From NCBI GenBank assembly GCA_018238625.1, contig JABCSY010000040.1:1-34679 (forward strand): a stretch of 34,679 nucleotides of DNA, given 5' to 3'. The stretch's first letter is position 1. Each line of letters begins with the position of its first letter. The translations under genes were made by a program, and so were the position numbers. The notes beneath the pieces are model-generated. The model did no database searches and had not been told where the DNA came from. It was given only the letters and a program-made list of their open reading frames with translations. Positions 1 to 15,194 of the stretch are shown here, one piece after another. This DNA is from Promethearchaeota archaeon. Lineage in GTDB: Archaea > Asgardarchaeota > Lokiarchaeia > Sigyniarchaeales > SOKP01.

Positions 1-837
1 CAAATGATTAAATGGAATGTGGATTATTTTTTCTCCCGCTCCTTCACTCTTTAATTTAAAAATTACGTCTTCCTTAATGTTAATTTTTTCAATATCAGAA
101 AATTTTATGTTAAAATCTTTTTCAAATTTCGTTATTTGATTCTTTTCAAAAAAGAAGTTTTCATAACAGAATAAGCCAAGACATATCTCCACATTTTCAG
201 AAGGAGTCACTCCTAAATCTTGCATACACCGGATCGTGTATAATTGACAAGGGGTACCTACTACCGCTAGTTTTTTGAATTTATAATGATTAAGTTCTGG
301 AATTGAATGAGTGTAAGTACTAAACTTCTGTATCTCGTCTAATTGAGGCGAAATATCCAATTTAGCTCCAGAAGATTTTATTAAATCAGGTTTGTTATCG
401 GCAAAAGCTGCTTCTCTGGAAAAAGGAGCGTCAGTTCTCGAAACAATTGCTCCATCAACCATTTTTTTTTCTACTAAATAATTTATTATTGAGTTCACTA
501 CACCGCCATCAGTCCCGTATTCTAAGAACTCCTTATCGGTAGCTTGGCAAGAATATATATCTTCATAGTATCCAATTGGCATAGAAGAGAAATCAGAGAA
601 TTTATAAGTTTTGTTGAGGTCATCGTCTAAAACATGTGTTTGTGGACAAATATAATAACATATTCCACATTCTAGGCATTTATCTTCGTTAATATATATG
701 GGAGGCGAATATTGATCTTTAAATCCAATAACATCGAATTCTGCCGAACTACAAAAAGAAACGCAGCCCCCACATTCTTGACAAATGCCTCTATCGTGTA
801 CTTCCTTTATTAGATCCTGAAACGATTTAGTGCTCAT
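1..837 (-). CDS. FrhB/FdhB-family (F420 hydrogenase/dehydrogenase beta subunit-like) protein with N-terminal 2x[4Fe-4S] ferredoxin; 3' end runs off the window
   Basis: Not in the ORF track. ATG at 837 overlaps the upstream stop, and the frame is open to position 1. Translation MSTKSFQDLIKEVHDRGICQECGGCVSFC...CLECGICYYICPQ...GTDGGVVNSII...VVGTPCQ...LGLFCYENF has the typical FrhB motifs DGG, GTPCQ and GLFC. Confidence 0.9.
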   Translation of the reverse strand, partial: MSTKSFQDLIKEVHDRGICQECGGCVSFCSSAEFDVIGFKDQYSPPIYINEDKCLECGICYYICPQTHVLDDDLNKTYKFSDFSSMPIGYYEDIYSCQATDKEFLEYGTDGGVVNSIINYLVEKKMVDGAIVSRTDAPFSREAAFADNKPDLIKSSGAKLDISPQLDEIQKFSTYTHSIPELNHYKFKKLAVVGTPCQLYTIRCMQDLGVTPSENVEICLGLFCYENFFFEKNQITKFEKDFNIKFSDIEKINIKEDVIFKLKSEGAGEKIIHIPFNHL

Positions 838-2335
838 CTTGATTCTCTTTCAAATTTATTGATTTACATTTTTTTCGTTTAATTCCACCAATTTTTTCCA
901 CTAGAAATTGGCCGGGCTTTACATCCTTTAAACTGTTAGATTCGATTAATCCTGCTTTAACTATATCGTTATATAGTTTATCTGCATCTTTCGATCTCGT
1001 TATTACAGAAGACCATCCATCTTGCGACCCAATCGATCCTACAGAAATGTCGGCGTAATCTGACGTTAGATCTTCACAAAAATGACAATTATCGCGCGCG
1101 TATTTTTGCACTTCTTTAAGAGGTACATCCATTTGCTCTCCAGATTTCAAGTTTATAATAAATTTACCGCCTCCAATATTCATTTTGGTTAGTTCGTTTA
1201 TGTCCTTGTTAAACTGTTCTTTAGCTAAATTAATTATTCCATCGTAAGGAAATGATTCCATGCAAAAAAGCCCGATTTTGTACTTGATATTATTAAAAAA
1301 GGGTAACCCACTTGGAAACATAGTCCCCTTTTCTATAGCTTTCATCATGCAAGGAACTCCTACGAAAGCTATCTTCTCGTATTTCTTACATTGATCTATG
1401 ATGGTTAAAGAAGGCGAATTTGCATATTTGGTTCCACCCGTTTTATATAAATCTTTCACATTCTCTACTATTATAGGCTCTGGTCTCCACAATTCCTCAG
1501 AGTGCTGCACAGCTACAATTGCATCGACAAGATTATTATCTAAAAGATATTCCAAGATAGAAGTTACAATACCACCATCTTGACGGACTTTCTTAATACC
1601 ATCTTTAGTCGTTGATGCTGAGTAAGCGTTAATGTAAGCTCCCGTTTTGTCAGACCATCTTAAAGATTTGTCTAACTTTTTAATGCTTTCGTTAGCTTGG
1701 TCTATCGAAAAGGAACGAGGACAGACCGAAAAACACAACCCACATTTCATGCAAACGTCTTCGTCAATTTCAAGAGTGTCTGCCGTCACTACGATGGCGT
1801 TTACAGGACAGATCGCAGAGCACCATCCACATTGACAACAGACTCCCGCGTTAAAAACTATAGAAACAGGTTCAAAATAATACTCAATAAAATCGTCTGG
1901 TAAATCTCTTACTTGGTACCTGTAAAAGAATTCCTTTACTTCAACTTCTTTTTCTTCTCCCTTGATTTTTTTTATAACCGTTTTAGTCTTGATTTCCACG
2001 TGTTCCTGAACGTATCCTTGTTCTTTTAGATAAATAACATCTCTAATAACATTTTCAGGAGGGAAGTCTTTGACGATCTTTACTATTTCTTCTAAAAATA
2101 ACGGCTTATTACCCGTTAATTCTTTTAGTACTAATTTCCGCTCAGTTTCTGCATCTATCATAGCATCAAGGATTTCGTAAAATTCGTTTTCAGAAAATTT
2201 ACCTACTTTCAATATCTCTTCTTTTGCTTCAAAAAAAGCTCTTACTTGAAAGTTTCCCGAAGCTTGATAAGTAGCTTCCATTAAGTCTTTAGGAGAGATT
2301 CCCTTAAACAACTTGCTATTTACAACTTGAACCAT
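827..2335 (-). CDS. FrhB/FdhB-family protein with ~150-aa N-terminal helical/winged-helix-like extension and a 2x[4Fe-4S] ferredoxin
   Basis: Motifs CCQCGWCSAICP, CMKCGLCFSVCP, QDGGIVTS, GGTKY, VGVPCM, IGLFCMESF and CHFCEDLTSDYADISVGSIGS. Confidence 0.9.
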   Translation of the reverse strand: MVQVVNSKLFKGISPKDLMEATYQASGNFQVRAFFEAKEEILKVGKFSENEFYEILDAMIDAETERKLVLKELTGNKPLFLEEIVKIVKDFPPENVIRDVIYLKEQGYVQEHVEIKTKTVIKKIKGEEKEVEVKEFFYRYQVRDLPDDFIEYYFEPVSIVFNAGVCCQCGWCSAICPVNAIVVTADTLEIDEDVCMKCGLCFSVCPRSFSIDQANESIKKLDKSLRWSDKTGAYINAYSASTTKDGIKKVRQDGGIVTSILEYLLDNNLVDAIVAVQHSEELWRPEPIIVENVKDLYKTGGTKYANSPSLTIIDQCKKYEKIAFVGVPCMMKAIEKGTMFPSGLPFFNNIKYKIGLFCMESFPYDGIINLAKEQFNKDINELTKMNIGGGKFIINLKSGEQMDVPLKEVQKYARDNCHFCEDLTSDYADISVGSIGSQDGWSSVITRSKDADKLYNDIVKAGLIESNSLKDVKPGQFLVEKIGGIKRKKCKSINLKENQDEH

Positions 2336-2379
2336 ATTTCCTTCATTTACCTATTTATTTAATACAGATTTTAACAAAT

Positions 2380-2436
2380 TAAAATTTAATTAAACTCCCA
2401 CCTTCGCAGGGTAAGTCATCTTATAACTAAAATTTT
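2380..2436 (-). promoter_or_regulatory. Candidate SECIS element (AUGA...GA core) in the mvhD 3' intergenic region
   Basis: Minus-strand RNA AAAAUUUUAGUUAUAAG-AUGA-CUUACCCU-GCGA-AGGUGG-GA-GUUUAAUUAAAUUUU. It is a GC-rich hairpin in an AT-rich spacer with an AUGA/GA kink-turn-like core, directly 3' of genes carrying in-frame UGAs. Folded by eye; the upper stem is imperfect. Confidence 0.65.
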
Positions 2437-2447
2437 TTTTATAAGAT

Positions 2448-2906
2448 TCATTCTTCTACGGGAGTAGTTAGTGTTTTTTGTTTTATTTTTTTAATATCCA
2501 TGCTTTTTAACGGATTGGGTCCAGATCTCTTTACCTTTTCGTACGCATCCTCGACGCTTTTAACAAACTTTTCTGCTTCAGCACTACTTAGCCAATACAT
2601 ATTAACTCTTCGACTACCGAATCCTCGCTTTTCCAAAATTCTATTAGCAAAATCAACATGTCTTTGGGCGTTAAAATTTCCTTCTTTAAACTGACATTCA
2701 TTTGGGCGTCATCCAACAACCATAACTCCGTCAGCTCCAGCTTTTATGCTATATAAGATGTGCTTTACATCGACTCTTCCAGTGCATCTTACTTTAATAA
2801 TCTTTACTGATGCTGTATATTTCATACGAGAGACCCCTGCTAAATCTGCAGCGCTGTATCCTCACTTTAAACAAGCAAATATTACAATTTTATAATTATT
2901 CTCCAT
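2448..2906 (-). CDS. mvhD: MvhD/VhuD [2Fe-2S] hydrogenase iron-sulfur subunit, selenoprotein with 2 Sec (152 aa)
   Basis: ATG at 2906, 5 nt after the hdrA stop and preceded by GAGGT. Translation MENNYKIVIFACLK-U-GYSAADLAGVSRMKY...VRCTGRVD...GADGVMVVG-U-RPNECQFKEGN...WLSSAEAEKF. UGA at 2864-2862 (U15) and 2711-2709 (U66), at conserved Cys positions of MvhD. Confidence 0.93.
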
Positions 2907-2911
2907 TCTGT

Positions 2912-4852
2912 TTAACCTCTTTCTAAAATTCCATCAATTTCAGTAAATAGTTGATAATCTCGATAATATCTAATGTCTATTGCTTGAGTGGGACAACATG
3001 TAACGCAAATCCCGCACCCATCGCAATTTATCTCGTCTACAACAGCACCTTCGTCGCCAACAACCGTAATTGCGTTTTTTGGGCATGCTTTTTCGCACCT
3101 TTTACACGAAATACAGAGCTCGTTATTAACTTCAGCGGTTATTAGTTCAATATCTATTTTTCCAGGGGCGGTTAATTCAGCTACTTTACTTGCAGCTGCA
3201 CTTGCTTGAGAAACCGAATACGCAATATTTTTTGGTCCTTGAGCAAACCCAGCTATAAAAATTCCCTTAGTATTAGTCTCTACTGGCATCAATCCAAAGT
3301 GAGCTTCTGTTAAAAATCCGTTTGTATCGACATCTAAGTTTAATACTTTAGCTATTTGCTCTGTACCTTTTGATGGTAATGCCGCTGTAGATAAAACGAC
3401 TAAATCCGCGCTAATCTTAATGATTTCGTCAGTTAAAGACGAATAAACTCGAACATTTACGTTTTTAGTCTTAGGATCTTCAGTAATTTCGCCAACCTTT
3501 CCCCGGATCATCCTAATATCAGAATCTTTAGCTCGTTGATAATATTCTTCGAATCCTTTTTCGTTCGTTCTTATGTCTATGTAACAAATGGTAATGTTCG
3601 CGTCCGGAAACTCTTCTTTAAGCAACTTTCCGTTTTTCAACGATAACATACAACAAACGCCACTACAATAAGGTCTTTCCGTGTTACGACTCCCCACGCA
3701 TTGAATAAACACAATTTCTTTAGGTTTTTTGACGTCCGAAATTCTATGGACATGACCTTCTAATGGACCATTCGGTGCTAAGATTCTTTCGAGTTGGGCT
3801 TGTTGAATCACATTTTCGAACTTTCCGTACCCGTATTCTCCAAATGGTTCGTAAATATCCCATCCAGTTGCGATTATTATCGTTCCTACATTAAACATAA
3901 CTTCTTCGGGTACTTGACTGAAATCAATGGCATCTAACTCGCAAGCATCCACACAACTAAAACATTCAACGCATACATCTCTATTAACGTCGTACAAGAA
4001 AGGTACTGCCTGTCCAAACGCTATATCAATTGCTTTTCTCACCCCTAAGTTTTCGTCAAAATAATTCGAAGTATATACCGGACACACTTCAGAACAGGCA
4101 CCACAACCATTACAATCGTTATTTACGTAACGCGGCTTCTTCTCAACGGTGATTTTATAATTTCCGACATATCCTTCAACCTCTTTCACTTCGCTATAGC
4201 TTAGAATCTCGATATTTTCGTGGCGATTGACTTCAAGCATTTTGGGTCCACAGATTCAAATTGAACAGTCGTCGGTTGGGAAGGTTCTATCTAACTGAGA
4301 CATCCTTCCTCCGATTGTGGTATTTTTCTCGACTAAATAAACTTTTATCCCTCCATTCGCTAGGTCTAATGCGGCGTTCATCCCAGCTATTCCTCCGCCA
4401 ACCACTAAGGTTGCTTTTTCAACGGGAACTGTTCTTATAGGGATGGCCTCCAAACATTTTGCTCTATTGATTCCTCCATTAACCAAGATTTTTGCTTTTT
4501 CTAAAGCTTCTTCGTTATCTTCAGTACACCAAGCACAATGTTCTCTTACATTAACCATTTGAAAAAAGTAAGGATTCGCAGCGGTCTTAGCGAGTGATGC
4601 CCTGTAAATTGGTTCGTGTGTCCTAGGCGTTCAAGCAGAAGCTACAATACAATTTAAGTTTTTTTCTTCTATATCTTTGACTATCTCGTTTTGACCGCTT
4701 TCTGTTCATAGAAAGGCATGAGTTTTAGAAATTACAACATCATCAATACCTTTAGCAAATTCTACTAACTCGTCGCAATCAACTTTACTACGTATGTTAA
4801 TTCCTCACTGGCATGAATAGTATCCAATCCGATGATTTTCAGATTTTTCCAT
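2912..4852 (-). CDS. hdrA: Heterodisulfide reductase subunit A (FAD, Fe-S), selenoprotein with 4 Sec (646 aa)
   Basis: One frame from ATG 4852 to TAA 2912 joins the two ORF-track fragments. UGA at 4807-4805 (YSCQ-U16-GINI), 4708-4706 (FL-U49-TESGQ), 4633-4631 (ASA-U74-TPRTHE) and 4258-4256 (TFPTDDCSI-U199-ICGPKM). Also GGGIAG FAD motif, IQCVGSR, YCSGVCC and two ferredoxin domains. Confidence 0.95.
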
Positions 4853-4863
4853 TTTTTTTCTTA

Positions 4864-4872
4864 CTCCACCTC
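4864..4872 (-). promoter_or_regulatory. Shine-Dalgarno-like sequence of hdrA
   Basis: GAGGTGGAG ends 11 nt before ATG 4852, supporting this upstream start. Confidence 0.6.
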
Positions 4873-4922
4873 AAGTTTTACAATTTTGATTTTCTATTTA
4901 ATTGTCAATTAATTTTCGATAC

Positions 4923-4942
4923 ATTAGATCGAAAGATCTAAT
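4923..4942. promoter_or_regulatory. Perfect inverted repeat upstream of hdrA (candidate operator or hairpin)
   Basis: ATTAGATC-GAAA-GATCTAAT, about 70 bp upstream of the hdrA start. Confidence 0.4.
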
Positions 4943-5110
4943 TTATTTTATTATAGATTATTTTAATTTTTATATTATTAATAATTATATTTTTTTCTAT
5001 TTAACGGTAAAAGTTAATTTAATAACATAATCAGTAAAATAAGAATCAAATCGAAAATATTCGCAAAAAGGATAATTGAAGAGAAGTTTATATAAAGAGA
5101 AGTAATAAAT

Positions 5111-6256
5111 TTAGCTTAGCGATTGAGTTTGATTTATGGTCGTTAAATCGCTTCTTTTTTCGACTAAATTAGAAGTTAATTCTTCCAACGTCTCGATTTT
5201 TCTTTCTAAAAGTTCGATCCTATCAAAATTAGTTGAAAGAATTTTTCTAATTAATTTATTTTCCGAAACTGTAAATGCTCCAGCTTTCTTCTTAAAAAAT
5301 CTAAACCTTTTGTAAAATTCCGATTTTTTCAAGAGATTCAATCGAATTATCCATTTAACCATTGGCACAAAACGTCTTTTAGTTCGTACTTTTTTTTCAA
5401 CTTCTTTATAATAATCGTTAAGCGTGTGTCGTTGGTAATGTAATAGGTTTTCGGACTTCTGAGTGTCGCAAAAGCCACAATGGAAATCTTTTACAGCAAA
5501 TCCTTCTTTAGGTAAAAAATTTGGACCTAGCCCAAAAATTTCCATCATATCATTAAGGTACTCTCTATAAGTTATTCTACATCTATCTCCGCCAGCTATA
5601 TTGAACGTATCACCCCATACTCCATCGCTCTCAACAGCGTTAGCGAGCGCTAGTCCAACATCTTTAGTATCGCAAATTTCGATTGAAGTATCTAAAGGCA
5701 TATGAAACATCAATGGGTCCATATTTAACTTGTTTACAGAAGTAATATATGTCAATCTAAATATTGCAAAATCTACACCCGAATCCCTTATCAATTTTTC
5801 CGCATTAATTTTAGTTAAAGCATAATAATCTCCGCGACTTGGAGCGAGGATGTCAGTAGTTTTAATCATTGGGTTATCTAATCTATCTCCGTAAACCGCA
5901 ATTGAACTAGTAAAAATTAATTTTGGTTTTTTGACTTGATTTTTTATCGCATTGAGCAAATTTTTAGTTCCTCCAACATTTACGGCGTCAGCTAAGCTTG
6001 TGTTATCATCAGCTAAAGGTGGAATAATGGCTGCTAAATGAATAATAACATCTTGTTCTTTAACTGCGCTTTCCACGTCTTCTTTACTTCTAAGGTCGCC
6101 CCAAACAATATCAATCTTGTTTTTGAATTTTTTAGCTACTTTTCTATTTTTCCGGTTATATACTTCAAATACTCTAACATTTAAACCTTTATACAGTAAT
6201 TCTTTTAATGTACTTAACCCAACATTTCCAAACGCACCTGTTAGTAAAATATTCAT
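5111..6256 (-). CDS. NAD(P)-dependent epimerase/dehydratase (extended SDR)
   Basis: TGAFGNVG Rossmann motif, HLAA, FTSSIAVYG and catalytic YALTK (YxxxK). Confidence 0.88.
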   Translation of the reverse strand: MNILLTGAFGNVGLSTLKELLYKGLNVRVFEVYNRKNRKVAKKFKNKIDIVWGDLRSKEDVESAVKEQDVIIHLAAIIPPLADDNTSLADAVNVGGTKNLLNAIKNQVKKPKLIFTSSIAVYGDRLDNPMIKTTDILAPSRGDYYALTKINAEKLIRDSGVDFAIFRLTYITSVNKLNMDPLMFHMPLDTSIEICDTKDVGLALANAVESDGVWGDTFNIAGGDRCRITYREYLNDMMEIFGLGPNFLPKEGFAVKDFHCGFCDTQKSENLLHYQRHTLNDYYKEVEKKVRTKRRFVPMVKWIIRLNLLKKSEFYKRFRFFKKKAGAFTVSENKLIRKILSTNFDRIELLERKIETLEELTSNLVEKRSDLTTINQTQSLS

Positions 6257-6354
6257 ATAAATCTCCCTTTAAACCTTAAATTTTTTTTTTTATTTTTTAA
6301 AAATAAAACAAAATCCCTATAAAAAAAGAATTAATACTTACTAAAGAGTTGAAT

Positions 6355-6370
6355 TGTTGCGATCGCAACA
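6355..6370. promoter_or_regulatory. 16-bp perfect palindrome, candidate operator between divergent genes
   Basis: TGTTGCGATCGCAACA is self-complementary and GC-rich within an AT-rich divergent intergenic region. Confidence 0.55.
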
Positions 6371-6433
6371 CATAATAATGTGCATTTATACTTCAAATTA
6401 AAGAAAGAATTACTCGTAGATGGTTTTAATTTA

Positions 6434-7114
6434 ATGAAAATTATACGATTACAAATACCGGGAAACTTTTTGGAATATGTGGGGTTTGCCGATTTATTGC
6501 AAAATCTCGAATTTATTGAAATTTTAAACGCTTTTCAGTACGACCAAAACCACTTCTTTGCTCTTCAGCGAATACAATTTAAGCCAAATACAATAACGAA
6601 CTTGGAAGAATTTATTAAAACTAAGTTTAATCCACAATCTTTCCATTTATTAAACCAAACTGGAAACGAGATAATTTGCATTATGAATCAAAATAATACT
6701 TCGGGGTTTTTTCCGATCGTCGATTCTGGACCGTGGGCTTTTCTATTTCCTATTCATATTTCACAGGAACATCTATTAATTAATATGATTTCTCAAAATG
6801 AATACATTAAGCAGTTATTTAAAGTTATTTCCTCATTTACAGAAAATTATAAAATTATTGGAATGACCGATTTAGATAAAATAGATCGCGTTGACGAAAC
6901 TATTTGGAAATCCGCTATTCCTTTCCCTAACTTTACAAAAAGACAACAAGAGGTTGCATCTTACGCCGCTAAAAATGGGTTTTTTAAATCACCAAAAAAG
7001 ATTAGCGCAACTCAAATAGCTAAACATTTCAAAATATCAGAATCTGCCGTAAATCGTCATTTAAAAGAAGCGAGGAACCTATCTATGGAGTATTTTTTTG
7101 GTAATTTTTTTTAG
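6434..7114 (+). CDS. Transcriptional regulator with C-terminal Bat-type (HTH_10) helix-turn-helix
   Basis: C-terminus FTKRQQEVASYAAKNGFFKSPKKISATQIAKHFKISESAVNRHLKEA matches the archaeal Bat-like HTH pattern. ATG 6434 preferred over GTG 6380. Confidence 0.8.
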   Translation: MKIIRLQIPGNFLEYVGFADLLQNLEFIEILNAFQYDQNHFFALQRIQFKPNTITNLEEFIKTKFNPQSFHLLNQTGNEIICIMNQNNTSGFFPIVDSGPWAFLFPIHISQEHLLINMISQNEYIKQLFKVISSFTENYKIIGMTDLDKIDRVDETIWKSAIPFPNFTKRQQEVASYAAKNGFFKSPKKISATQIAKHFKISESAVNRHLKEARNLSMEYFFGNFF

Positions 7115-7222
7115 ACTCGGTGCAACTAAATTGAAAATATTTTTATAAGCTAACAACCTAAAATGTAAATATAATAAAGAAAATAAAATAATTTACTTGT
7201 TAAAATTAAATCTTATTCTACT

Positions 7223-8824
7223 ATGATTGATCCAAAACCTTCACCACAAGAAATATTTGAGAAAAGGGAGGAATTTGGGTTAGAAAATTCAATTAAATTG
7301 TTAACTGATATTGTTGAAACTGAAAAAGATTACGGTAAAAGGAAAGGAGCGGTAAAATATTTAGGATTAGTAAGTAGGGAAGTTCCCTCGCTGAAGAAAG
7401 AATGTTTTAGCACATTAGAAAATGTATTAATATCTGAAGACGGTATTGAAATTAAATGCGAAGCTGCGAAAGCTTTAGGTAAACTGAGGTTTGATAAAGC
7501 TTTAAAGCCGTTGATGTGGATATTGGAACAAAAATTGGATAATATGGAAGTTAAATTAGCTGTTTTGAAAGCTATAAAGAAAATAAAATTCGAAGAACCT
7601 CAGATAAACCTGTTTATCAATGAATTAGATTCACATTATAATTCTATTAAAGACTTTGTCAAAAACCAATTATTAAGTATAGGACCAGAAATTCTAATAA
7701 AATCGTTATTGATTTATTTAAAAAGCGAAAACATCTCAAATGAACACAAATCAGAGATAATTAAACTTATAGGATACGAATTGTCGAGCATTAACGTTTC
7801 TTTTGAGGATATTAGTTATCTAAGGGTTAAGTATCCGGAAGTTATCTCTAATTTGCTTCAAAACAAACAGCTTTTATTAGATGAAATTACTCGAATTTTA
7901 AAAGAATTAGATTCTGAATTAATGGATTCTGCGGTTTCGATTCTAAAATTATTAGGTCCTGATATTAAGCAGGATGTGATAAGATTATTACTGAGCGATG
8001 ATTTTATCGTCAAAAAGAATGCAATAACCCTTACCGGAAAATTAAAGTTAATAGATGCTGTAGATTTCTTAACACAGAATTTGGATAATATCTATAACGA
8101 AGTAAGCATAGCTACAATTGAAGCTTTGGGAGAGATCGGGGACCTTTCGGCAGTTCCCGAAATGCTAGGCATATTAGACATAGAAGATATTAGCTTCGAG
8201 TACACCGATCTGGATATGAAGCTTTACATAATAGACGCAATAAAAAAGATTTATCTGAGTAATAAAAACGCTGATTACGATTCCCTATTTTCGTACTTAA
8301 ATTCAGATAACGATACGATCAAAGAAAGCATTGCGTTTATTCTGGGAGAAATTGGAAATGAGGAATTTGTCAAACCACTAAGAAGTTTGTTAAAGAATAG
8401 AAATTTGGATGTTAAAAAAAACACAATAATCGCTCTTGGAAAAATAGGAAACATTGAACCTGTTGGCGACCTAATAGACATTTTAGAGAATCCTGAATCA
8501 TATTGGCTTATAAAAAAAGTAGCAATAGATGCTATCTATAATATTTTTCAAAGAAATTGGTATAAAGTAAAAGACGATGATGTAGAATTAAAAAGTACTT
8601 TAATTAAAGATGTTGCAATTATAATAGATTACTTAAAAAGAAGCGATGACGAAAATTTCAAAGTTAAAGTAAGTTTAATAAAATTTTTAGAAATATTTGG
8701 AGAAAAACACGCTTTAAGCGCCTTACTATTGAGAGTAAACGATTTTCCTCGAATAGTGCGCATTCATGCCTCAAATGCTATTAAAAAAATAGAAGAGAAA
8801 CTGGAACTTGAAAATGCAGAATGA
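7223..8824 (+). CDS. HEAT/PBS-lyase repeat protein
   Basis: Repeated alpha-solenoid motifs: EAAKALGKL, ATIEALGEIGD, IAFILGEIGN, TIIALGKIGN. Confidence 0.85.
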   Translation: MIDPKPSPQEIFEKREEFGLENSIKLLTDIVETEKDYGKRKGAVKYLGLVSREVPSLKKECFSTLENVLISEDGIEIKCEAAKALGKLRFDKALKPLMWILEQKLDNMEVKLAVLKAIKKIKFEEPQINLFINELDSHYNSIKDFVKNQLLSIGPEILIKSLLIYLKSENISNEHKSEIIKLIGYELSSINVSFEDISYLRVKYPEVISNLLQNKQLLLDEITRILKELDSELMDSAVSILKLLGPDIKQDVIRLLLSDDFIVKKNAITLTGKLKLIDAVDFLTQNLDNIYNEVSIATIEALGEIGDLSAVPEMLGILDIEDISFEYTDLDMKLYIIDAIKKIYLSNKNADYDSLFSYLNSDNDTIKESIAFILGEIGNEEFVKPLRSLLKNRNLDVKKNTIIALGKIGNIEPVGDLIDILENPESYWLIKKVAIDAIYNIFQRNWYKVKDDDVELKSTLIKDVAIIIDYLKRSDDENFKVKVSLIKFLEIFGEKHALSALLLRVNDFPRIVRIHASNAIKKIEEKLELENAE

Positions 8825-8951
8825 ACCGTTTTTTTATCGAAAGCAAGCGATTATTTTTTAATAAATTTTATTATTAGTAATCCATTTCCATTACATAGAT
8901 CTACAAACAAATAAATTAAACTAATACAGAGTTTTTGATGATTAATTAACT

Positions 8952-10451
8952 ATGACTGAGAATCAAACGGACAAAGAACAACCGGCTACTCAATATGATT
9001 ATTCCTTCGATTATATTCAAAAGAAGCTTGAAGGGAAAAAGGATTCTTTCGGTATGTTAATGAAAGAAATTGTGCGGGCAGGAATATGCACGGAATGCGG
9101 GACATGTGCCGCAGTTTGCCCAGTTCTCGAGTGGGACCATTTGGCAGGACAGCCTAAGTTAATAGGGAAATGTACGGGGTGTGGTATCTGCTATAACCAA
9201 TGTCCCCGAACTATAACAGACCCTATCCAACTAATGGGAGAGTTCAAAACAGGATATGTAGCGAATACAGATATCCCAGAAGTTATTGGTGGCCAAGATG
9301 GAGGAACTGTGACTTCTTTACTAATTTATTTATTTGAGGAACATTTAATTGATGCTGCAATCGTTGCAATGAGAGATCCTAGTAATCCGTGGCATCCAGT
9401 TTCTCAGATAATTACCAGTAAAGAGGACGCTATAAAAGCTTCCGGATCGATTTACTGTCATACTCAAACTGTCGAAGCGTTAATGGATGCTATACGACAA
9501 GATTATAGATCAATAGCTTTTGTTGGTACGCCTTGTAATATCGATGCCGTAGATAAGATGATGAGTTCTCCGTCGGGAATGTTAAAATATTTTATGCGCG
9601 CTCACATTCTTAAAATTGGTTTGTTTTGTATGGATTCTTTTTCTCCAGAAGCACTTTATCAATTTTTCGAAAAAGATGGGATTGACCTTTCAAAAGTAGT
9701 TAAAATGGATATTAGTAAAGGAAAATTTCACTTATATAACGACGCTAAGGGAGAACCAATAAAATCATATACCATCAAACAATTACATAAGTTTAAATCT
9801 CCAAGTTGTAATTTTTGCACAGATCTGACCGCCGAAAATGCGGATATTTCTGTTGGCTCAGTAGGTAGTGGAGCAAACAAAAACACAGTATTTGCAAGAA
9901 CTGGAATTGGATCTGAGATTATGGAAGATGCTGCTAAAAAAGGATATCTTAAAATTGAACCTTATAACGCTATAAATTTGAACGCAGTATTGTTTCTGGC
10001 TAAACTTAAAAAAGTTTCTCAATACAACATTCAAAAACGTAAGGTCTTCATCGTTAGAGATCCTATGGAGAAAGAGGGCCCGAAAATTGAGACTAAGCCT
10101 GAAGAAGAGAAACCTACTACGAAAACGCTAGGGACTAGAAAATTCTTGCGCGTATCTAAAGATGTAAATGAAAAAGAAAAGATATTAAAAATATCGTTAA
10201 CTAACAGTATAGGTTATCTTTTAGAAGACATCAAAATCAGAATCGCTATAGTCGAAGAATTATTTGAAAAGAAACCTTGGATAACTAATATTAGAGAATT
10301 ATTCCCTTATGAAACTATTGAGATAGGATATCCCTTAGAAACTGAAAACAACGAAATAATTTATGGTAATGTGTTAGTAGAGGCCTCAACTGAGGCGTTT
10401 GGAAAAGTTTTTTCAAAAACTTTTAAATTGACACCTAAAGAAAAAAAATAA
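8952..10451 (+). CDS. FrhB/FdhB-family protein with ferredoxin domain and ~130-aa C-terminal extension
   Basis: Motifs CTECGTCAAVCP, CTGCGICYNQCP, GQDGGTVTS, VGTPCN, IGLFCMDSF and CNFCTDLTAENADISVGSVGS. Confidence 0.9.
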   Translation: MTENQTDKEQPATQYDYSFDYIQKKLEGKKDSFGMLMKEIVRAGICTECGTCAAVCPVLEWDHLAGQPKLIGKCTGCGICYNQCPRTITDPIQLMGEFKTGYVANTDIPEVIGGQDGGTVTSLLIYLFEEHLIDAAIVAMRDPSNPWHPVSQIITSKEDAIKASGSIYCHTQTVEALMDAIRQDYRSIAFVGTPCNIDAVDKMMSSPSGMLKYFMRAHILKIGLFCMDSFSPEALYQFFEKDGIDLSKVVKMDISKGKFHLYNDAKGEPIKSYTIKQLHKFKSPSCNFCTDLTAENADISVGSVGSGANKNTVFARTGIGSEIMEDAAKKGYLKIEPYNAINLNAVLFLAKLKKVSQYNIQKRKVFIVRDPMEKEGPKIETKPEEEKPTTKTLGTRKFLRVSKDVNEKEKILKISLTNSIGYLLEDIKIRIAIVEELFEKKPWITNIRELFPYETIEIGYPLETENNEIIYGNVLVEASTEAFGKVFSKTFKLTPKEKK

Positions 10452-12984
10452 CATTAGAATACCTCTCTCTTGCCCGTTTTCTCCTCAAGCCTTCTGGAAT
10501 CTGATTATTTTCAAGATCTAATATTTGTAGATTAAAGAGGGATTCTAATCCCTTGATCTCGGTAATCCGATTATTCATAAGATGTAACTTTTGTAGGTTA
10601 GCGAGGGATTCTAAACCCTTGATCTCGGTAATCTTATTATAATTAAGATTTAATTCTTGTAGATTAGCGAGGGATTCCAAGCCCTTGATCTCGGTAATCA
10701 GATTACTATAAATATCTAATCTTTGTAGATTAAAGAGGGATTCCAAACCCTTGATCTCGGTAATCTGATTTTTATTAAGACGTAACCATTTTAGATTAGC
10801 GAGGGATTCTAAACCCTCGATCTCGGTAATCTGATTATTTTTAAAACATAAATATTGTAGATTAGTGAGGGATTCCAAGCCCTTGATCTTGGTAATCTGA
10901 TTATTTTCAAGATGTAAATATTGTAGATTAGCGAGGGATTCCAAGCCCTTGATCTTGGTAATCTGATTACTATCAAGAAGTAACCTTTGTAGATTAGCGA
11001 GGGATTCCAAGCCCTTGATCTCGGTAATCTGATTACAATCAAGACGTAAAATTTGTAGATTAGCGAGGGATTCCAAGCCCTCGATCTCGGTAATCTGATT
11101 AACTTCAAGATATAGCGCTTCTAAATTAGTCAAGGTTTCCAAGCCCTTGATCTTGGTAATCTGATTACCAGTAAGAGATAGCTCTTCTAAATTAGTCAAG
11201 GTTTCCAAGCCCTTGATCTTGGTAATCGGATTACCACCAAGATATAATGTTTGTAGATTAGCGAGGGATTCCAAACCCTTGATCTTGGTAATCGGATTAC
11301 CACCAAGATATAATGTTTGTAGATTAGCGAGGGATTCCAAACCCTTGATCTCGGTAATCTGATTACTAAAAAGACTTAAATCTTGTAGATTAGTCAAGGT
11401 TTCCAAACCCTTGATCTCGGTAATCTGATTACGAAAAAGACTTAAATATTGTAGATTAGTCAAGGTTTCCAAACCCTTGATCTCGGTAATCTTGTTCCGA
11501 TCAAGAAGTAACTTTTGCAGATTTGCAAGGGATTTCAAGCCCTTGATCTTGGTAATCTGATTATCCTGAAGATCTAATGTTTGTAGATTAGCGAGGGATT
11601 CCAAGCCCTTAACATCGGAAATCTTTTTAATATTCATACTTGAAAGGCCCAAAAATCCATCTTTCTTAACCTCAATCTTTTTTCCGTAAACCCTAACAAA
11701 TTGCGAATCTTTTTTTTTTTTTTTTTTTTTTCTAATGTTAGTATTTAATATAGAATTTTTTGTCTCTGGAGGTATATCATCCAAATCCTCATCTAATAGT
11801 AATTTCTTAGCAGTTTCTACATTATCTAACCTAGCTTCATCAGATAAATTACTTAAATTTAGAATTCCAACTTCTTCTTCAGCCACAATTCTCTCTTTTG
11901 GGTATTCCTTTTCTCTCTTCTTAACTTGAGTGATTATTTCATCTAAGATTTTGGTTTTATAATATCTGTCAGTTATCTCAACACCACTCTCTTTTAATAT
12001 CGTAAGTTGAGCTTTTGCTTCCTCACTCAGCAATGTTTGATTAATAATCAGGTTCTTTAAGGATGATAAGTTTGAAAGAGATTTCGGTAGCATTTTTATA
12101 GGATTCTCGCTTAAATTTAGTATTTCAAGATTTTTTAAATCGCCAATTATTTCGGGGATCTCTTCTATCTGGTTTTTGCTTAAGTCTAATTCCAATAAAT
12201 TTTTGAGATTACCAATAAATTTAGGGATTTGTTTAATCATTTTTTCCGAAAATAAGGAAGGACTTATCTTAAGAATTTTAAGAGCTTTCAGATTACCTAT
12301 AAACTCTGGGACTTGCGATAATGCAATATACTCATAATCCAGCCATAATAAGGAAGTAAAATGTTCTATTACTTTGGGGATATATATAGATTTATAGAAT
12401 TTCATAGTAAGACCAATTACTCTAGTATTTTCTACAAAAGCTTTAAGTGAAGCATACATAAATTTCAATCTATCATTCATCCCAACAATTACAAATTGAG
12501 CGGGATCTACGCTTTCCATCTCTTCAAGGAAATTAACTTCACTTTGAAGCAAAGCTCTTCCCCTAAAATTCACAATCTTATCGGGATCCTTACTCTTATT
12601 TACGATTTTTGTGTGAGAGAGGAAAGGCTCAAATTCATAAAAATTACTAAAAGCAGCATTTTCTGGCCATATAATTAATGAATGTCCCTCTGAAATACGA
12701 TGAGTAATAAAATTAAATATTTCGTCTTCATGAATATCCGTTTCTGGACCAGTATCGTCAAGAAAATAATCTTCATGATGTTTTAGTTCAAAATAGGATA
12801 ATTGGATTTCGTTCTCTTCCTTAGTTAAGTAAACCTTTCTTATTTGAGAGGGATGAGTGATTCCTACATTCGCTAATTCTTCTTTTAATATAGAGATAGA
12901 AGGATGTGGGGGTGAGTACCCACAATACCGACAGAATTTATATCCAATATCCCATTTCTCATTACATGATTCACATTTTTTCAT
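10435..12984 (-). CDS. Leucine-rich repeat protein: N-terminal zinc ribbon, central LRR block and C-terminal SDS22-like LRR array
   Basis: CESC...CRYC at the N-terminus, IPEIIGDLKNLEILNLSENPI-type repeats, then ~17 22-aa repeats LQxLxLxxNQITEIKGLESLAN. Confidence 0.92.
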   Translation of the reverse strand: MKKCESCNEKWDIGYKFCRYCGYSPPHPSISILKEELANVGITHPSQIRKVYLTKEENEIQLSYFELKHHEDYFLDDTGPETDIHEDEIFNFITHRISEGHSLIIWPENAAFSNFYEFEPFLSHTKIVNKSKDPDKIVNFRGRALLQSEVNFLEEMESVDPAQFVIVGMNDRLKFMYASLKAFVENTRVIGLTMKFYKSIYIPKVIEHFTSLLWLDYEYIALSQVPEFIGNLKALKILKISPSLFSEKMIKQIPKFIGNLKNLLELDLSKNQIEEIPEIIGDLKNLEILNLSENPIKMLPKSLSNLSSLKNLIINQTLLSEEAKAQLTILKESGVEITDRYYKTKILDEIITQVKKREKEYPKERIVAEEEVGILNLSNLSDEARLDNVETAKKLLLDEDLDDIPPETKNSILNTNIRKKKKKKKDSQFVRVYGKKIEVKKDGFLGLSSMNIKKISDVKGLESLANLQTLDLQDNQITKIKGLKSLANLQKLLLDRNKITEIKGLETLTNLQYLSLFRNQITEIKGLETLTNLQDLSLFSNQITEIKGLESLANLQTLYLGGNPITKIKGLESLANLQTLYLGGNPITKIKGLETLTNLEELSLTGNQITKIKGLETLTNLEALYLEVNQITEIEGLESLANLQILRLDCNQITEIKGLESLANLQRLLLDSNQITKIKGLESLANLQYLHLENNQITKIKGLESLTNLQYLCFKNNQITEIEGLESLANLKWLRLNKNQITEIKGLESLFNLQRLDIYSNLITEIKGLESLANLQELNLNYNKITEIKGLESLANLQKLHLMNNRITEIKGLESLFNLQILDLENNQIPEGLRRKRARERYSNVIFFL
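10498..11610 (-). repeat. Coding tandem repeat, ~17 x 66 bp
   Basis: Recurrent + strand unit tgtagattagcgagggattccaagcccttgatctcggtaatctgatt at a 66-bp period. Confidence 0.95.
11710..11731 (-). repeat. 22-nt homopolymer (A22 on the coding strand) inside the LRR gene
   Basis: T run from 11710 to 11731, encoding R-KKKKKKK in frame. Confidence 0.9.
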
Positions 12985-13119
12985 TGCGTTACTCCTAATT
13001 CTCGTCTTAACTTAATTAAGACATATACAAATTTAAATCTTTTTTTAAAAATAATCCCGTTTTCTTTTAAATATCGGAATTGGAAAACGAAAACGATTTA
13101 AAGATCATGAAATCACACA

Positions 13120-15000
13120 TTATTTTATTTTATCTTTTTTAAACCTTGGTTTTTTACAAGAACATTTATTATTTTTATCGATTAAATTATTGCAATATGG
13201 AATAAAGTTTGTAGCATCCAAATCCATTACTGAACTTATAATTTTTGGAGATATATTCTCATACTTCTCTTCTCGATATTCTTTCTTTTTTTTTAAATAT
13301 CTTTCCCATGATTTTTCGAAATCCTGTTTTATTATTTTCAAACTCTTTTTGAAATTTGGATGTAAATATTTTTCAACTAATTTGTTAAGTTTCTTAAAAT
13401 TTATTTTCTTCCAATCACCATATTTAGGAAGATACTCATAAATATTATGAACCCAATCGAAATCACATAAACGAGACTTAGCTAATTCGATAGAATCTTG
13501 ATTCCAATTTAAGAATTGCAAATCATTTAAAATTTCAGAATCGTTATTTTTTGTACTATTACATAAAATTCTCAGAAACTTTTTTATTATATTTTTTCCT
13601 TCTTCTGCATGTACAGATGCGTGAGTGTGATAAGTGTAAGAGACATCTTTACCGCGATCAACTTTTCTTTTTTTGGGAAGGAACAAAAAATTAAATATTT
13701 CATCGTTTTCCTTTACCATATCAGAATGATGAAAGATAGCTGTATTTTCAGTACTAATATAATTCAAATCTCGAAGATGTGAAACTAAATCATAATCATC
13801 AAAGGAGAAACCGAGTGTTTGAAGGAATCGTAAAATTCTTACTTCAATAGATTTATAATTATTACCATATTTTTCTTTTACTTCCATATTTCGTCTTCTT
13901 GCTTTCTCAGATGTTTTCCTAATCTCCTCATTATAATAATCTAAATAATCTTTATAACCTACTAATGCTACCTCAGACTTATCATTATCTTTAATAGATT
14001 GAATGAACGGAAATATATTATTTTCTAAGGTTTGGGATTTAAAATAATAATTAATTTCTGATAAATTGTCTAACGCAACGTTTACTTTACCTTCAAACAT
14101 TCCTGTAATTTTCAAAAGTTTTCTTAAATTAAGATTTGAACATTTTAGCAGAATATTAACAAGGTTTACTTCCTCTTTGTTTTTATTTTTTTTAAGAAAA
14201 CTCAGAATTTCTTCATCTAATATTTTTCTATTTTTTAATCTTCGTTTTAAATACTTTTCAGCAATTACCACTCTATTTTCATATAAAGAAAGTAATCTTT
14301 GCGTACTTCCTATTCCTAATAAAGCTCTTAAATTATTCAAACTTGCATAAGTCACTTGATTACCAGAACGCACTTTATATGTTAATTCAAATTCATCTTT
14401 AAAGAAATGAATTAATATAGCTCCAATATATTTAGGATGATATAAATTATAATCTCCTTTATAAATAATATCATTTATATCAAATTTACTAATTTCAAAT
14501 TTATTAAAATACTCGTAAAGCTCTTTTGCTCTATTTTTTAGTTCAATTTTAAATTCTTCAGATAAACTTATATTAAAGTTTATGGAAAGTTTGTTAAGCA
14601 AATCTTCAAAATATTGAAATATTTTATTTTTAAATTCATTTATATTAAGTGAAATCCTTTTACAATAATTATTATAATATTTACTAAATGTATCATCATT
14701 TATAGAAAGTAATTTTGAATATTTAGTTTTATTCAAGATGAGTGTATCTAAATCTTTATAAAACATTAAATGCATGAATAGGCTCACGGCAGAAGCATAA
14801 ATAGGATTCTTTAATCCTAAGTATGTGTAAAGTTTATTCTTCTTAAAAAAATTAATAATTTTCTCACTATCTATCATTCCTATGATTTTAAAATCAGCCG
14901 AATTCATTAAACATTTGATGTGTATATTCAAATTAGTTTTAAATTTCTCATCAAATGTTAAATTTTCTATAAAAGAATCAAAATTATTATTACTATCCAT
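13120..15000 (-). CDS. Hypothetical protein with possible cyclin/TFIIB-like helical repeats and an HNH-like motif
   Basis: 626-aa ORF, very AT-rich. IFHHSDMVKENDEIFNFLFL...HTHASVH resembles HNH. KNPIYASAVSLF and YHPKYIGAILIHF resemble TFIIB/cyclin box helices. Confidence 0.55.
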   Translation of the reverse strand: MDSNNNFDSFIENLTFDEKFKTNLNIHIKCLMNSADFKIIGMIDSEKIINFFKKNKLYTYLGLKNPIYASAVSLFMHLMFYKDLDTLILNKTKYSKLLSINDDTFSKYYNNYCKRISLNINEFKNKIFQYFEDLLNKLSINFNISLSEEFKIELKNRAKELYEYFNKFEISKFDINDIIYKGDYNLYHPKYIGAILIHFFKDEFELTYKVRSGNQVTYASLNNLRALLGIGSTQRLLSLYENRVVIAEKYLKRRLKNRKILDEEILSFLKKNKNKEEVNLVNILLKCSNLNLRKLLKITGMFEGKVNVALDNLSEINYYFKSQTLENNIFPFIQSIKDNDKSEVALVGYKDYLDYYNEEIRKTSEKARRRNMEVKEKYGNNYKSIEVRILRFLQTLGFSFDDYDLVSHLRDLNYISTENTAIFHHSDMVKENDEIFNFLFLPKKRKVDRGKDVSYTYHTHASVHAEEGKNIIKKFLRILCNSTKNNDSEILNDLQFLNWNQDSIELAKSRLCDFDWVHNIYEYLPKYGDWKKINFKKLNKLVEKYLHPNFKKSLKIIKQDFEKSWERYLKKKKEYREEKYENISPKIISSVMDLDATNFIPYCNNLIDKNNKCSCKKPRFKKDKIK

Positions 15001-15194
15001 ATTAAAGGTTTATTGTTTTATGTTTAAATTTCTATCATTATTTTTTTAATTTAATAACAATTTATTATTAGCAATACTTAATACAAGTATAAGGTATTAT
15101 AATTTTTTATAAAATATTCAAAAATATGTAAATAATTCTGTTTTTAACAATTAGAGTCTTATTTAATAATATAATAATAAAATTAAAAAAAAAG

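Follow-up and report, generated by a model that had tools for sequence, protein, structure and literature searches.

What an HdrA–MvhD pair does when it is encoded next to two FrhB-type genes in a Loki-type Asgard archaeon is the question raised by one end of the DNA analyzed here, the 34,679-nucleotide contig JABCSY010000040.1 of a Promethearchaeota archaeon (assembly GCA_018238625.1; this whole stretch is called the window). No closer relatives of eukaryotes are known than Loki-type Asgard archaea, whose energy metabolism has mostly been inferred from genes. The four genes in question, hdrA, mvhD (vhuD), frhB1, and frhB2, all lie on the minus strand, and an earlier note made from the sequence of the window had read them as a candidate F420-linked electron-bifurcating complex. 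Our analysis showed that they are the visible part of a cluster of seven genes. On balance, we favor the view that this cluster encodes a soluble, hydrogenase-independent Hdr-type complex that is linked to F420(H2) and works by electron bifurcation or confurcation; the assembly, electron path, direction, and acceptor of such a complex are what we infer.

A seven-gene cluster interrupted by a contig end

The gene calls of the earlier note, including two distinct ferredoxin-FrhB genes whose stop and start overlap, were reproduced with the same boundaries. The hdrA gene (2912–4852, minus strand) encodes a type I HdrA selenoprotein of 646 amino acids (aa) when its four in-frame UGA codons are read, and ends with TAA. 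It is followed after 5 nucleotides (nt) by mvhD (2448–2906, minus strand), which encodes a 152-aa selenoprotein with two in-frame UGA codons and the Pfam domain FlpD, and, after a further 112 nt, by frhB1 (827–2335, minus strand; 502 aa), which was assigned from Pfam, NCBIfam, and PDB matches and from an AlphaFold2 model. The ATG of frhB2 (1–837, minus strand) lies at 835–837 and the stop codon of frhB1 at 827–829, giving an overlap of 11 nt; the first 279 of the 370 codons of frhB2 are present before the contig end cuts the gene.

Window position 1 is the end of the contig (C119), so the visible part of the cluster is cut by the assembly and not by biology. The contig belongs to a 4.29-Mb bin (G000; 201 contigs, 97.9% completeness, 7.6% contamination). 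Another contig of the same bin, C144, overlaps window positions 1–1034 at 93% identity, at L003 (G000:C144) 8586–9619, and both contigs end inside the overlap, which probably reflects strain heterogeneity that broke the assembly; a second copy of the cluster in the bin behind this overlap is possible. In order, C144 carries the genes for full-length FrhB2, a protein with a CCG domain whose N-terminus resembles HdrC, a double HdrA of 1031 aa, and a 145-aa MvhD of the Cys type. Across both contigs, the cluster consists of seven co-directional genes in approximately 10 kb, encoding a selenocysteine (Sec)-type HdrA, a Sec-type MvhD, FrhB1, FrhB2, an HdrD-like protein, a double HdrA, and a Cys-type MvhD.

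These downstream genes bear on the earlier note, which had counted the completion of a conventional Frh, Fdh, or HdrABC set against its own reading. An HdrC–HdrB fusion, a double HdrA, and a second MvhD do complete the set in part, but the outcome is not a conventional HdrABC. The statement that no hdrB/C, NiFe large-subunit, or fdhA gene lies in the visible part held: in the domain search, none of the 21 further open reading frames (ORFs) of at least 100 aa in the window had a CCG, NiFe-hydrogenase, or molybdopterin domain. Domain searches of the cluster in the window and of its continuation likewise found no NiFe-hydrogenase, FdhA/ElpA-like, or molybdopterin-domain gene.

The synteny across Asgard genomes that the earlier note had proposed as a check is kept. 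The same seven-gene order was present in all seven orthologous loci examined, which represent four genera (G016, G009, G015, and G007 of genus g1; G177 of g14; G174 of g16; and G222 of g12), and the spacing is tight, with the 11-nt overlap and gaps of 5 and 8 nt. An eighth locus, G070, which was chosen through a 47%-identical FrhB2 paralog, has another arrangement. Of the 40 genomes sampled from the family, 37 gave FrhB2-type matches with an E-value of 1e-60 or better, as did 0 of the 160 genomes that represented 26 other families in a sample of the phylum, where absence means not found with this query; matches of at least 55% identity came from six genera. The seven-gene cluster is specific to one family of Loki-type Asgard archaea. 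Some orthologous loci add a further double HdrA of 920 aa; identification of this ORF, which follows the second MvhD gene in relatives, as an HdrA–FrhB fusion was considered and rejected.

Two unlike FrhB subunits and the F420 context

FrhB1 comprises helices and a winged helix (residues ~10–150), a 2×[4Fe-4S] ferredoxin domain (160–210), and an FrhB-type FAD/[4Fe-4S]/F420 module (230–495). Besides the ferredoxin domain, Pfam recognized FrhB_FdhB_N (74.5 bits) and FrhB_FdhB_C (137.5 bits). The protein scored above the cut-off of the NCBIfam subfamily PRK09325 (276.8 vs 269 bits) and under that of the FrhB equivalog TIGR03289 (238.6 vs 331.5 bits), and is not FrhB proper. In pairwise HMMER alignments to PDB chains, which were used for all FrhB comparisons, the best matches of FrhB1 were FrhB (3zfs_C; E 9.9e-57) and the F420-reducing Fwd subunit (8rja_E; E 2.4e-52), followed by Fsr. 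The AlphaFold2 model, built from a 24-sequence alignment (pLDDT 87.1, pTM 0.89), matched FrhB in Foldseek (4ci0_C; TMt 0.90, root mean square deviation 1.4) and, in the VIA fold search, 8riu_E (Z 43.1) and ElpB (8rvu_E; Z 24.8).

The markers of the FAD and F420 sites in M. marburgensis FrhB, as given in PMC3930138 and PMC3591093, are 24QDGG, the K75–Y76 loop in G73–T77 (GTKYT), I132–F138 with Cys134, and 163IGKGK; the iron-sulfur (FeS) ligands are Cys104, Cys134, Cys192, and Cys195, and S209–V210 lies beside the F420 ring. FrhB1 has QDGG, GTKYA, LFCMESF, all four FeS cysteines, IGGGK for IGKGK, and S-I at the S209–V210 positions, and most of these markers were invariant in 24 aligned homologs. 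On the strength of these alignments, we read FrhB1 as the predicted F420 site of the cluster. Residues ~57–150, which are blank in Pfam, showed a winged-helix fold with matches to Fur, ArsR, MarR, ESCRT-II, and RPA32 at Z values of 7.3–8.6; these values are middling, and the list of matches is uniform. Winged-helix leads for the N-terminus in ESM Atlas reached 0.84, under 0.9, and agreed with the fold search. This domain is probably a docking module.

FrhB2 combines a 2×[4Fe-4S] ferredoxin domain with a divergent FrhB-type module. The full 370-aa form on C144 is 94% identical over residues 1–279 and scored 51.8 bits for FrhB_FdhB_N and 125.4 bits for FrhB_FdhB_C in Pfam, staying below the cut-offs of PRK09325 (179 vs 269 bits) and TIGR03289 (159.9 vs 331.5 bits). 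The closest solved chains are ferredoxin-plus-FrhB subunits of ethanotrophs (8rja_E, E 2.5e-45; 8riu_B, E 7.1e-35), and the FeS cysteines and the ferredoxin domain are retained. At the markers, all 10 orthologs have TDGG, G(A/V/T)(K/M)L(D/N), IKEDV, G-L for S-V/I, and K(Y/H)T for GW, together with a 12-residue insertion; where the FrhB2 motif has L at its fourth position, all four solved F420 modules have Tyr. This loss of markers makes two equivalent F420 sites doubtful and weakens the FrhB heterodimer of the earlier note, taken as a pair of F420 sites; we assign the predicted F420 site to FrhB1. For FrhB2, the motifs favor a role in wiring or as a scaffold in place of FdhA/ElpA, or a site for another compound, over a second F420 site; this role is a guess.

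The search for F420 genes suggested by the earlier note was positive. The bin encodes cofG (369.6 bits; cut-off 213), cofH (465.5 bits; cut-off 374), cofD (319.4 bits; cut-off 257), cofE (268.7 bits; cut-off 181), and Mtd (358.4 bits; cut-off 25), all above the curated cut-offs, and this gene content suggests that the organism probably makes and uses F420. F420 biosynthesis genes in Lokiarchaeota were already known (review PMC8498797). McrA was not found in the 97.9% complete bin, so that CoM-S-S-CoB is probably not made here and hence probably not a substrate.

A search of 24 further genomes of the genus gave FrhB1 orthologs of at least 67% identity in 23 of them. A large FrhB expansion, with 28 FrhB1 matches per genome, was rejected: this count was inflated because most of the matches were ferredoxin domains, and a phmmer census of proteins with an FrhB domain gave eight ORFs, or seven genes, in the bin. 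Inside the frhB1 coding region (2051–2165, minus strand), Rfam returned, as its only hit in the scanned region, an S15-leader match of 21.4 bits against a gathering score of 39.5 (E 0.12), which we took as chance. A third FrhB-like gene lies at 8952–10451 on the plus strand and encodes a 499-aa protein in which a ferredoxin motif and FrhB_N/C domains are followed by a C-terminal extension (~150 aa) without a family; its PRK09325 score was 215.7 bits, under the cut-off of 269. It is located 4 kb from hdrA on the opposite strand, behind an epimerase gene, an HTH_10 regulator gene, and a HEAT-repeat gene, and is placed likewise in G016 and G020. Elsewhere in the bin, at L021 (G000:C162) 5510–8251 (plus strand), a 914-aa protein is encoded that combines this architecture of winged helix, ferredoxin domain, and FrhB module with a C-terminus that is GltD/NfnB-like by eye; upstream ORFs are, also by eye, GltD-like (~3.5 kb off) and PyrK-like (adjoining). 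By this visual likeness, the protein may be an F420-linked enzyme of the Nfn or glutamate-synthase type.

The selenocysteine pair and the other Hdr-type subunits

The in-frame TGA codons of hdrA lie at 4805–4807 (U16), 4706–4708 (U49), 4631–4633 (U74), and 4256–4258 (U199). Residues 7–644 of the protein aligned to solved HdrA (9sfi_A, E 4e-198; 5odc_A, E 3.9e-195), and the four UGA codons fell on Cys, Cys, Cys, and X columns of 9sfi_A, where we took the X as the Sec of that chain. The alignment showed a complete domain set, comprising the N-terminal FeS domain, the TrxR-like FAD domain with the Cys197 site, the inserted ferredoxin domain, and the C-terminal ferredoxin domain; Pfam FAD and Fer4 domains were present. 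The scores were under the NCBIfam cut-offs for HdrA2 (NF040770; 776.9 vs 1100 bits) and HdrA (NF041778; 599.2 vs 1400 bits), models of ~770 positions that include a fused MvhD part; MvhD, a separate gene here, covers HdrA2 positions 647–773. The Sec sites correspond to Cys positions of the N-terminal FeS domain (CxU, U49, and U74) and to the Cys197 site, which in solved HdrA ligates the N-terminal-domain cluster from the partner protomer (PMC9012536). The ligands named in PMC9012536, together with the alignment rather than coordinates, suggest that one [4Fe-4S] cluster of HdrA may be bound largely by selenocysteines. Three to four UGA codons stood at the same sites in five of the eight loci in which the hdrA pattern was matched.

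The TGA codons of mvhD lie at 2862–2864 (U15) and 2709–2711 (U66), and the terminal TGA at 2448–2450, which belongs to the AUGA of the selenocysteine insertion sequence (SECIS) described below, was taken as the stop. MvhD was recognized by Pfam FlpD (PF02662; 148.6 bits vs a cut-off of 22.3), has the Cys/Sec ligands for a [2Fe-2S] cluster, and scored 165.3 bits for VhuD (NF045873), under the cut-off of 215. Its Sec residues stand at VhuD positions, the first site being U in 8/8 loci and the second in 7/8. The second MvhD of the cluster is of the Cys type in 7/7 loci.

Folding and an alignment of 10 loci placed a Loki-type SECIS core at 2416–2451 (minus strand). It consists of AUGA (2451–2448), a 9-bp stem (2447–2439 with 2426–2418), a 12-nt A-rich loop, and GA (2417–2416); the loop has 11 nt in the other nine aligned loci. 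The stem was 94.4% paired in the 10 orthologous loci; both bases of one pair were replaced in 5 of the 10 sequences. An outer 6-bp helix, in which four pairs were changed on both sides, encloses the hairpin, and the region 2394–2465 (minus strand) forms a conserved three-way junction of the SECIS hairpin and a second small hairpin within this outer helix. The covariation score of the region was reached by none of 500 shuffles, which related sequences can beat even without structure; slid controls, which were 40–53% paired against 88.7% observed, pointed in the same direction. No SECIS family was matched in the Rfam E-value scan of window positions 1–6500, and the 5-nt gap between hdrA and mvhD holds no other SECIS candidate. 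A GC-richer hairpin ~35 nt further downstream was considered as the SECIS and rejected, as fold and alignment place the element with AUGA and the 9-bp stem at the mvhD stop; the GC-richer hairpin belongs to the three-way junction as a side arm.

The element agrees with the lokiSECIS criteria of Mariotti et al. (2016; PMC4989117), lying directly after vhuD and being common to hdrA. These authors described Lokiarchaeota HdrA–VhuD tandems in which HdrA contains multiple Sec residues, with up to six UGA codons, and one shared lokiSECIS follows vhuD. The pair in the window has the same arrangement, with hdrA just upstream of vhuD and a very short gap, HdrA Sec sites including a position near 200, and two Sec residues in VhuD; it also shares the AUGA, the 9-bp stem, the A-rich loop (~11 nt), the TAA stop of hdrA, and the UGA stop of vhuD beside or inside the SECIS. 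By that description, nothing essential differs for the HdrA–VhuD pair itself, and the Sec HdrA–MvhD pair with its SECIS is real and already published. The words "FrhB" and "operon" have 0 occurrences in the main text of that paper, which does not treat the downstream FrhB, HdrD, and HdrA genes.

The HdrD-like protein is an HdrC–HdrB fusion, whose full 408-aa form with an ATG is found in G009. It contains two cubane motifs and two complete C..CC..CxxC motifs (residues 152–231 and 288–368 of the 408-aa form), and Pfam recognized CCG in two stretches and Fer4. The N-terminus matched HdrC (E ~1e-13) and the C-terminus weakly matched HdrB (E ~1e-4), and no NCBIfam cut-off was reached, the best score being for TfrB (111 vs 385 bits). 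On C144, the frame is open back to the frhB2 stop at L003 8140–8310 (minus strand), where it encodes the first CxxCxxCxxxC; there is no ATG, GTG, or TTG before this motif and an A-rich homopolymer lies just upstream, whereas G009 has an ATG there. The C144 frame has either a non-canonical start or an assembly error.

The double HdrA has two Rossmann/FAD sites, at residues ~5 and ~596. Its first half contains an FAD domain with the cysteine of the Cys197 site and an inserted ferredoxin domain, without either terminal domain; its second half contains the N-terminal cluster domain as well as the C-terminal ferredoxin domain, without Cys197 and the inserted domain, and has Cys where the first HdrA has Sec. 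By its predicted domain content, the double HdrA is a pseudo-heterodimer of complementary halves, that is, a type II HdrA.

Proposed function, alternatives, and known systems

The proposal of an F420(H2)-linked, hydrogenase-independent Hdr complex draws on the electron path of Elp-Hdr together with the plug-in F420 reductases of CODH and Fwd. F420H2 would give a hydride to the FAD of FrhB1, and the electrons would pass through FeS clusters and the N-terminal clusters of HdrA to the [2Fe-2S] cluster of the MvhD type and the bifurcating FAD, by analogy with Elp-Hdr. The low-potential branch would lead to ferredoxin, and the high-potential branch would lead through the HdrD-like subunit to a disulfide or a protein acceptor, with F420/F420H2 as the mid-potential substrate. 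Confurcation that makes F420H2 for Mtd would be as plausible a direction as F420H2 oxidation, and two coupled bifurcation modules would be possible, as predicted for clusters of anaerobic methanotrophic archaea (ANME) and reported for class II benzoyl-CoA reductase (BCRII).

A more specific version, which we offer tentatively and regard as unlikely to hold in full, would be one soluble complex with two HdrA modules, the Sec type I and the fused type II, entered through a heteromeric FrhB pair of a new kind. In this pair, the winged-helix subunit would hold the true F420 site, and the diverged FrhB, lacking such a site, would replace the FdhA/ElpA scaffold or bind a second substrate; two coupled bifurcations would allow F420H2 to power the reduction of ferredoxin, or the opposite reaction, with some acceptor that is not CoM-S-S-CoB. 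If true, this two-module complex with its FrhB pair would be a hydrogen-independent link between the F420 and ferredoxin pools in Loki-type archaea. More generally, a conserved Hdr cluster that has an F420 entry module and lacks a hydrogenase would offer a concrete, testable route for balancing ferredoxin, F420, and thiol pools without methanogenesis, and would extend the F420H2-dependent Hdr chemistry of Elp-Hdr beyond methane archaea.

The F420-linked bifurcating reading of the earlier note is supported by the markers and fold of FrhB1, by the cof genes and Mtd, and by searches that found neither McrA in the bin nor hydrogenase or FdhA genes in the cluster; the part that did not stand is the idea of the four genes as a self-contained unit. 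Several points weigh against the reading. No measurement of F420 itself has ever been made in these organisms (review PMC8498797). The search of the 97.9% complete bin for Mer (TIGR03555) gave no match at E 0.001 or better, which makes the F420H2 demand of the C1 pathway uncertain; methylene-tetrahydromethanopterin (H4MPT) reduction may proceed via another enzyme. The F420-site markers are retained in FrhB1, whereas in 10/10 FrhB2 orthologs four of the five markers compared depart from those of all four solved F420 modules. Unlike the FdhB-type Hdr arms that have been solved and were compared here, the cluster has no FdhA/ElpA-type scaffold among its genes. Continuity of the cluster in this genome is inferred via C144, which is 93% identical in the overlap, in a bin with 7.6% contamination. 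Finally, the bin contains approximately eight further MvhD-type genes, many HdrA-type genes, and a hydrogenase-type cluster on contig C95, so that subunits may be shared across loci.

This inventory matters for the first of three other explanations, in which the Sec HdrA–MvhD pair would serve a [NiFe] hydrogenase and HdrBC encoded elsewhere, as in the H2-dependent Mvh–Hdr type, and the FrhB-like genes would have a separate job or be alternative donors, comparable with Elp and Mvh sharing Hdr in Methanothermobacter. Two [NiFe] large-subunit genes lie in the bin outside the window. One is on C95, where L050 3444–10083 holds mvhG-like (438 aa), mvhA-like (438 aa), hdrC (175 aa), and hdrB (290 aa) genes, and tblastn found no hdrA or mvhD on the contig, as this explanation would have it; Mariotti et al. 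(2016; PMC4989117) also treat Loki HdrA/VhuD pairs as Vhu partners. However, the C95 genes have an equal or better candidate partner in a second Sec-type HdrA and MvhD pair, which stands alone on C32, and the pair in the window lies directly upstream of frhB1–frhB2 in 7/7 orthologous loci from four genera, so that we consider this explanation quite unlikely. The other [NiFe] large-subunit gene, on C109, follows an 848-aa ORF with both HdrA-like and MvhD-like matches, which we read as an HdrA–MvhD fusion; C48 encodes a 798-aa HdrA–MvhD fusion, and three more sets of double HdrA and MvhD occur on C68 (one) and C138 (two). The mvhG–mvhA–hdrC–hdrB cluster of C95 has as neighbors a YeeE-type gene for sulfur transport and a DsrE-like gene on the opposite strand.

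It is also conceivable, if unlikely, that the products of the first four genes are a non-bifurcating ferredoxin:F420 oxidoreductase feeding F420H2 to the H4MPT Wood–Ljungdahl branch, and that the three downstream genes encode a separate BamDEF-like enzyme. A complex of HdrA, MvhD, and FrhB has been proposed for Korarchaeia (PMC10667645), Mtd is present, the cluster holds two full sets of HdrA and MvhD, and its HdrD-like protein, fused HdrA, and MvhD mirror BamD, BamE, and BamF (10.64898/2026.04.10.717634). Against such a division, the seven genes stand together with tight spacing in 7/7 orthologous loci, and HdrA retains every domain of a bifurcating HdrA; clusters of type I and type II HdrA, HdrD, and FdhB in methane archaea are read as one complex, which is itself a prediction (PMC12054007). 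Very unlikely, in our judgment, is a third explanation, by which the FrhB-like subunits do not use F420 and carry FAD and FeS clusters for another substrate or as a mere electron relay, like 7-hydroxymethyl chlorophyll a reductase (HCAR) and related ferredoxin-dependent reductases. The FrhB fold does occur in the F420-independent HCAR (5dqr; Z 30.2, Foldseek E 1.2e-14), FrhB2 is without four of the five site markers, and neither FrhB reaches TIGR03289 (238.6 and 159.9 vs 331.5 bits). Yet the sequence of FrhB1 matches proven F420 enzymes (E 1e-56 to 1e-43) far more closely than HCAR (E 6.6e-8), the F420-proximal markers are retained, and the F420 biosynthesis genes searched for are encoded. We retain the F420(H2)-linked bifurcating or confurcating complex as the favored reading.

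Away from the cluster, window positions 10435–16115 encode an 849-aa leucine-rich-repeat protein, a 626-aa ORF without a family, and a Gtr1/RagA-type small GTPase; we take these as eukaryote-like signature genes such as have been reported for Asgard genomes. Nine sequencing runs held at least half of the sampled words, all of them presumably DNA and labelled metagenome, marine sediment, sediment, or cold seep; the shares of sampled words in runs labelled RNA were only 0.06–0.17.

The idea of joining HdrA, MvhD, and FrhB is not new: it has been proposed for Korarchaeia and ANME, and the F420H2-dependent Elp-Hdr has been shown biochemically. The latter, the (ElpABC-HdrABC)2 complex of Methanothermobacter marburgensis (PDB 8RVU; Nomura et al., 2025; PMC12350162), is bifurcating and contains an FdhB-type subunit and an MvhD homologue. 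Elp-Hdr and, as predicted from genes, the complex encoded here need no hydrogenase: F420H2 is oxidized by a flavoprotein of the FdhB/FrhB fold, from which electrons enter HdrA via FeS clusters and an MvhD homologue. Elp-Hdr has ElpA, a truncated FdhA, whereas the cluster has a second, divergent FrhB-like subunit instead, and a winged helix on FrhB1; moreover, the cluster has HdrB fused to HdrC and includes a second HdrA, which is itself a fusion, and a second MvhD, and McrA was not found in the organism. The cluster may work like Elp-Hdr and is not a member of it by composition.

HdrA clusters of ANME and methanogens combine a type I and a complementary type II HdrA with MvhD, HdrD, and an FrhB/FdhB module, and have been read as systems of F420-linked bifurcation or confurcation, possibly in two coupled steps (PMC9012536; PMC12054007). 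The same parts (type I and fused HdrA, MvhD, HdrD, and an FrhB/FdhB-type module) are combined here. According to these accounts, such clusters usually include a non-catalytic molybdopterin protein, and here there is none; clusters with FdhB only and no FdhA have been reported for ANME-1 (Chadwick et al., 2022, PMC9012536; PMC12054007). The order of the fused halves in HdrA 3/4 of ANME is opposite to that of the double HdrA (PMC9012536). Unlike those clusters, the one described here has two different FrhB-type genes and Sec codons, and occurs in an Asgard lineage that does not metabolize methane.

The downstream genes resemble BamD-BamE-BamF of Geobacter metallireducens class II benzoyl-CoA reductase, for which cryo-electron microscopy placed BamE next to the HdrBC-like BamD and the MvhD-like BamF (10.64898/2026.04.10.717634). 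As described in that source, the shared features are an HdrBC-fusion subunit, a fused HdrA dimer, with the bifurcating FAD in the N-terminal TrxR domain in Bam, and an MvhD-type adaptor with Sec, and in BamF a winged-helix motif acts as an interface between proteins. Genes for BamBC or BamGHI are absent from the cluster, and the input is of the FrhB type here and of the HydBC type there. The distal BamD cluster is altered, whereas both CCG motifs of the HdrD-like protein are complete, a comparison made by description, as Bam chains were not among the PDB matches.

In ethane-oxidizing archaea, CODH and Fwd have FrhB-type modules with an N-terminal 2×[4Fe-4S] ferredoxin domain as their F420 reductase subunits (Lemaire et al., 2024; PMC11493965; PDB 8RIU and 8RJA). 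These modules (359–370 aa) have the same architecture as FrhB2 and the C-terminal 350 residues of FrhB1, and gave the best fold matches of FrhB1. They attach to CODH or Fwd, whereas the FrhB genes here are clustered with those for HdrA and MvhD, and FrhB2 differs from the 8RIU and 8RJA chains at the Tyr of GT(K/R)Y, the S-(V/I) pair, and the GW motif. For Korarchaeia, an HdrA–MvhD–FrhB (FqoF-like) ferredoxin:F420 oxidoreductase has been proposed, with simple transfer from reduced ferredoxin to F420 (PMC10667645). Co-location of frhB with hdrA and mvhD, a non-methanogenic archaeon, an H4MPT Wood–Ljungdahl pathway, and the F420-linked reading are common to both cases; as far as the proposal is set out in that source, it describes no second FrhB, HdrD-like protein, fused HdrA, or Sec.

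All types of parts and the general idea have thus already been published. The papers examined from our full-text literature search contain no description of the seven-gene cluster in Asgard archaea; subscription papers (e.g., Spang et al., 2019) and supplements, which lie outside that search, may contain one. What looks new in comparison with these systems is the use of two unlike FrhB subunits in place of an FdhA/ElpA scaffold, the winged helix of FrhB1, the fused HdrB–HdrC, and the Sec/Cys pairing of the two HdrA–MvhD sets.

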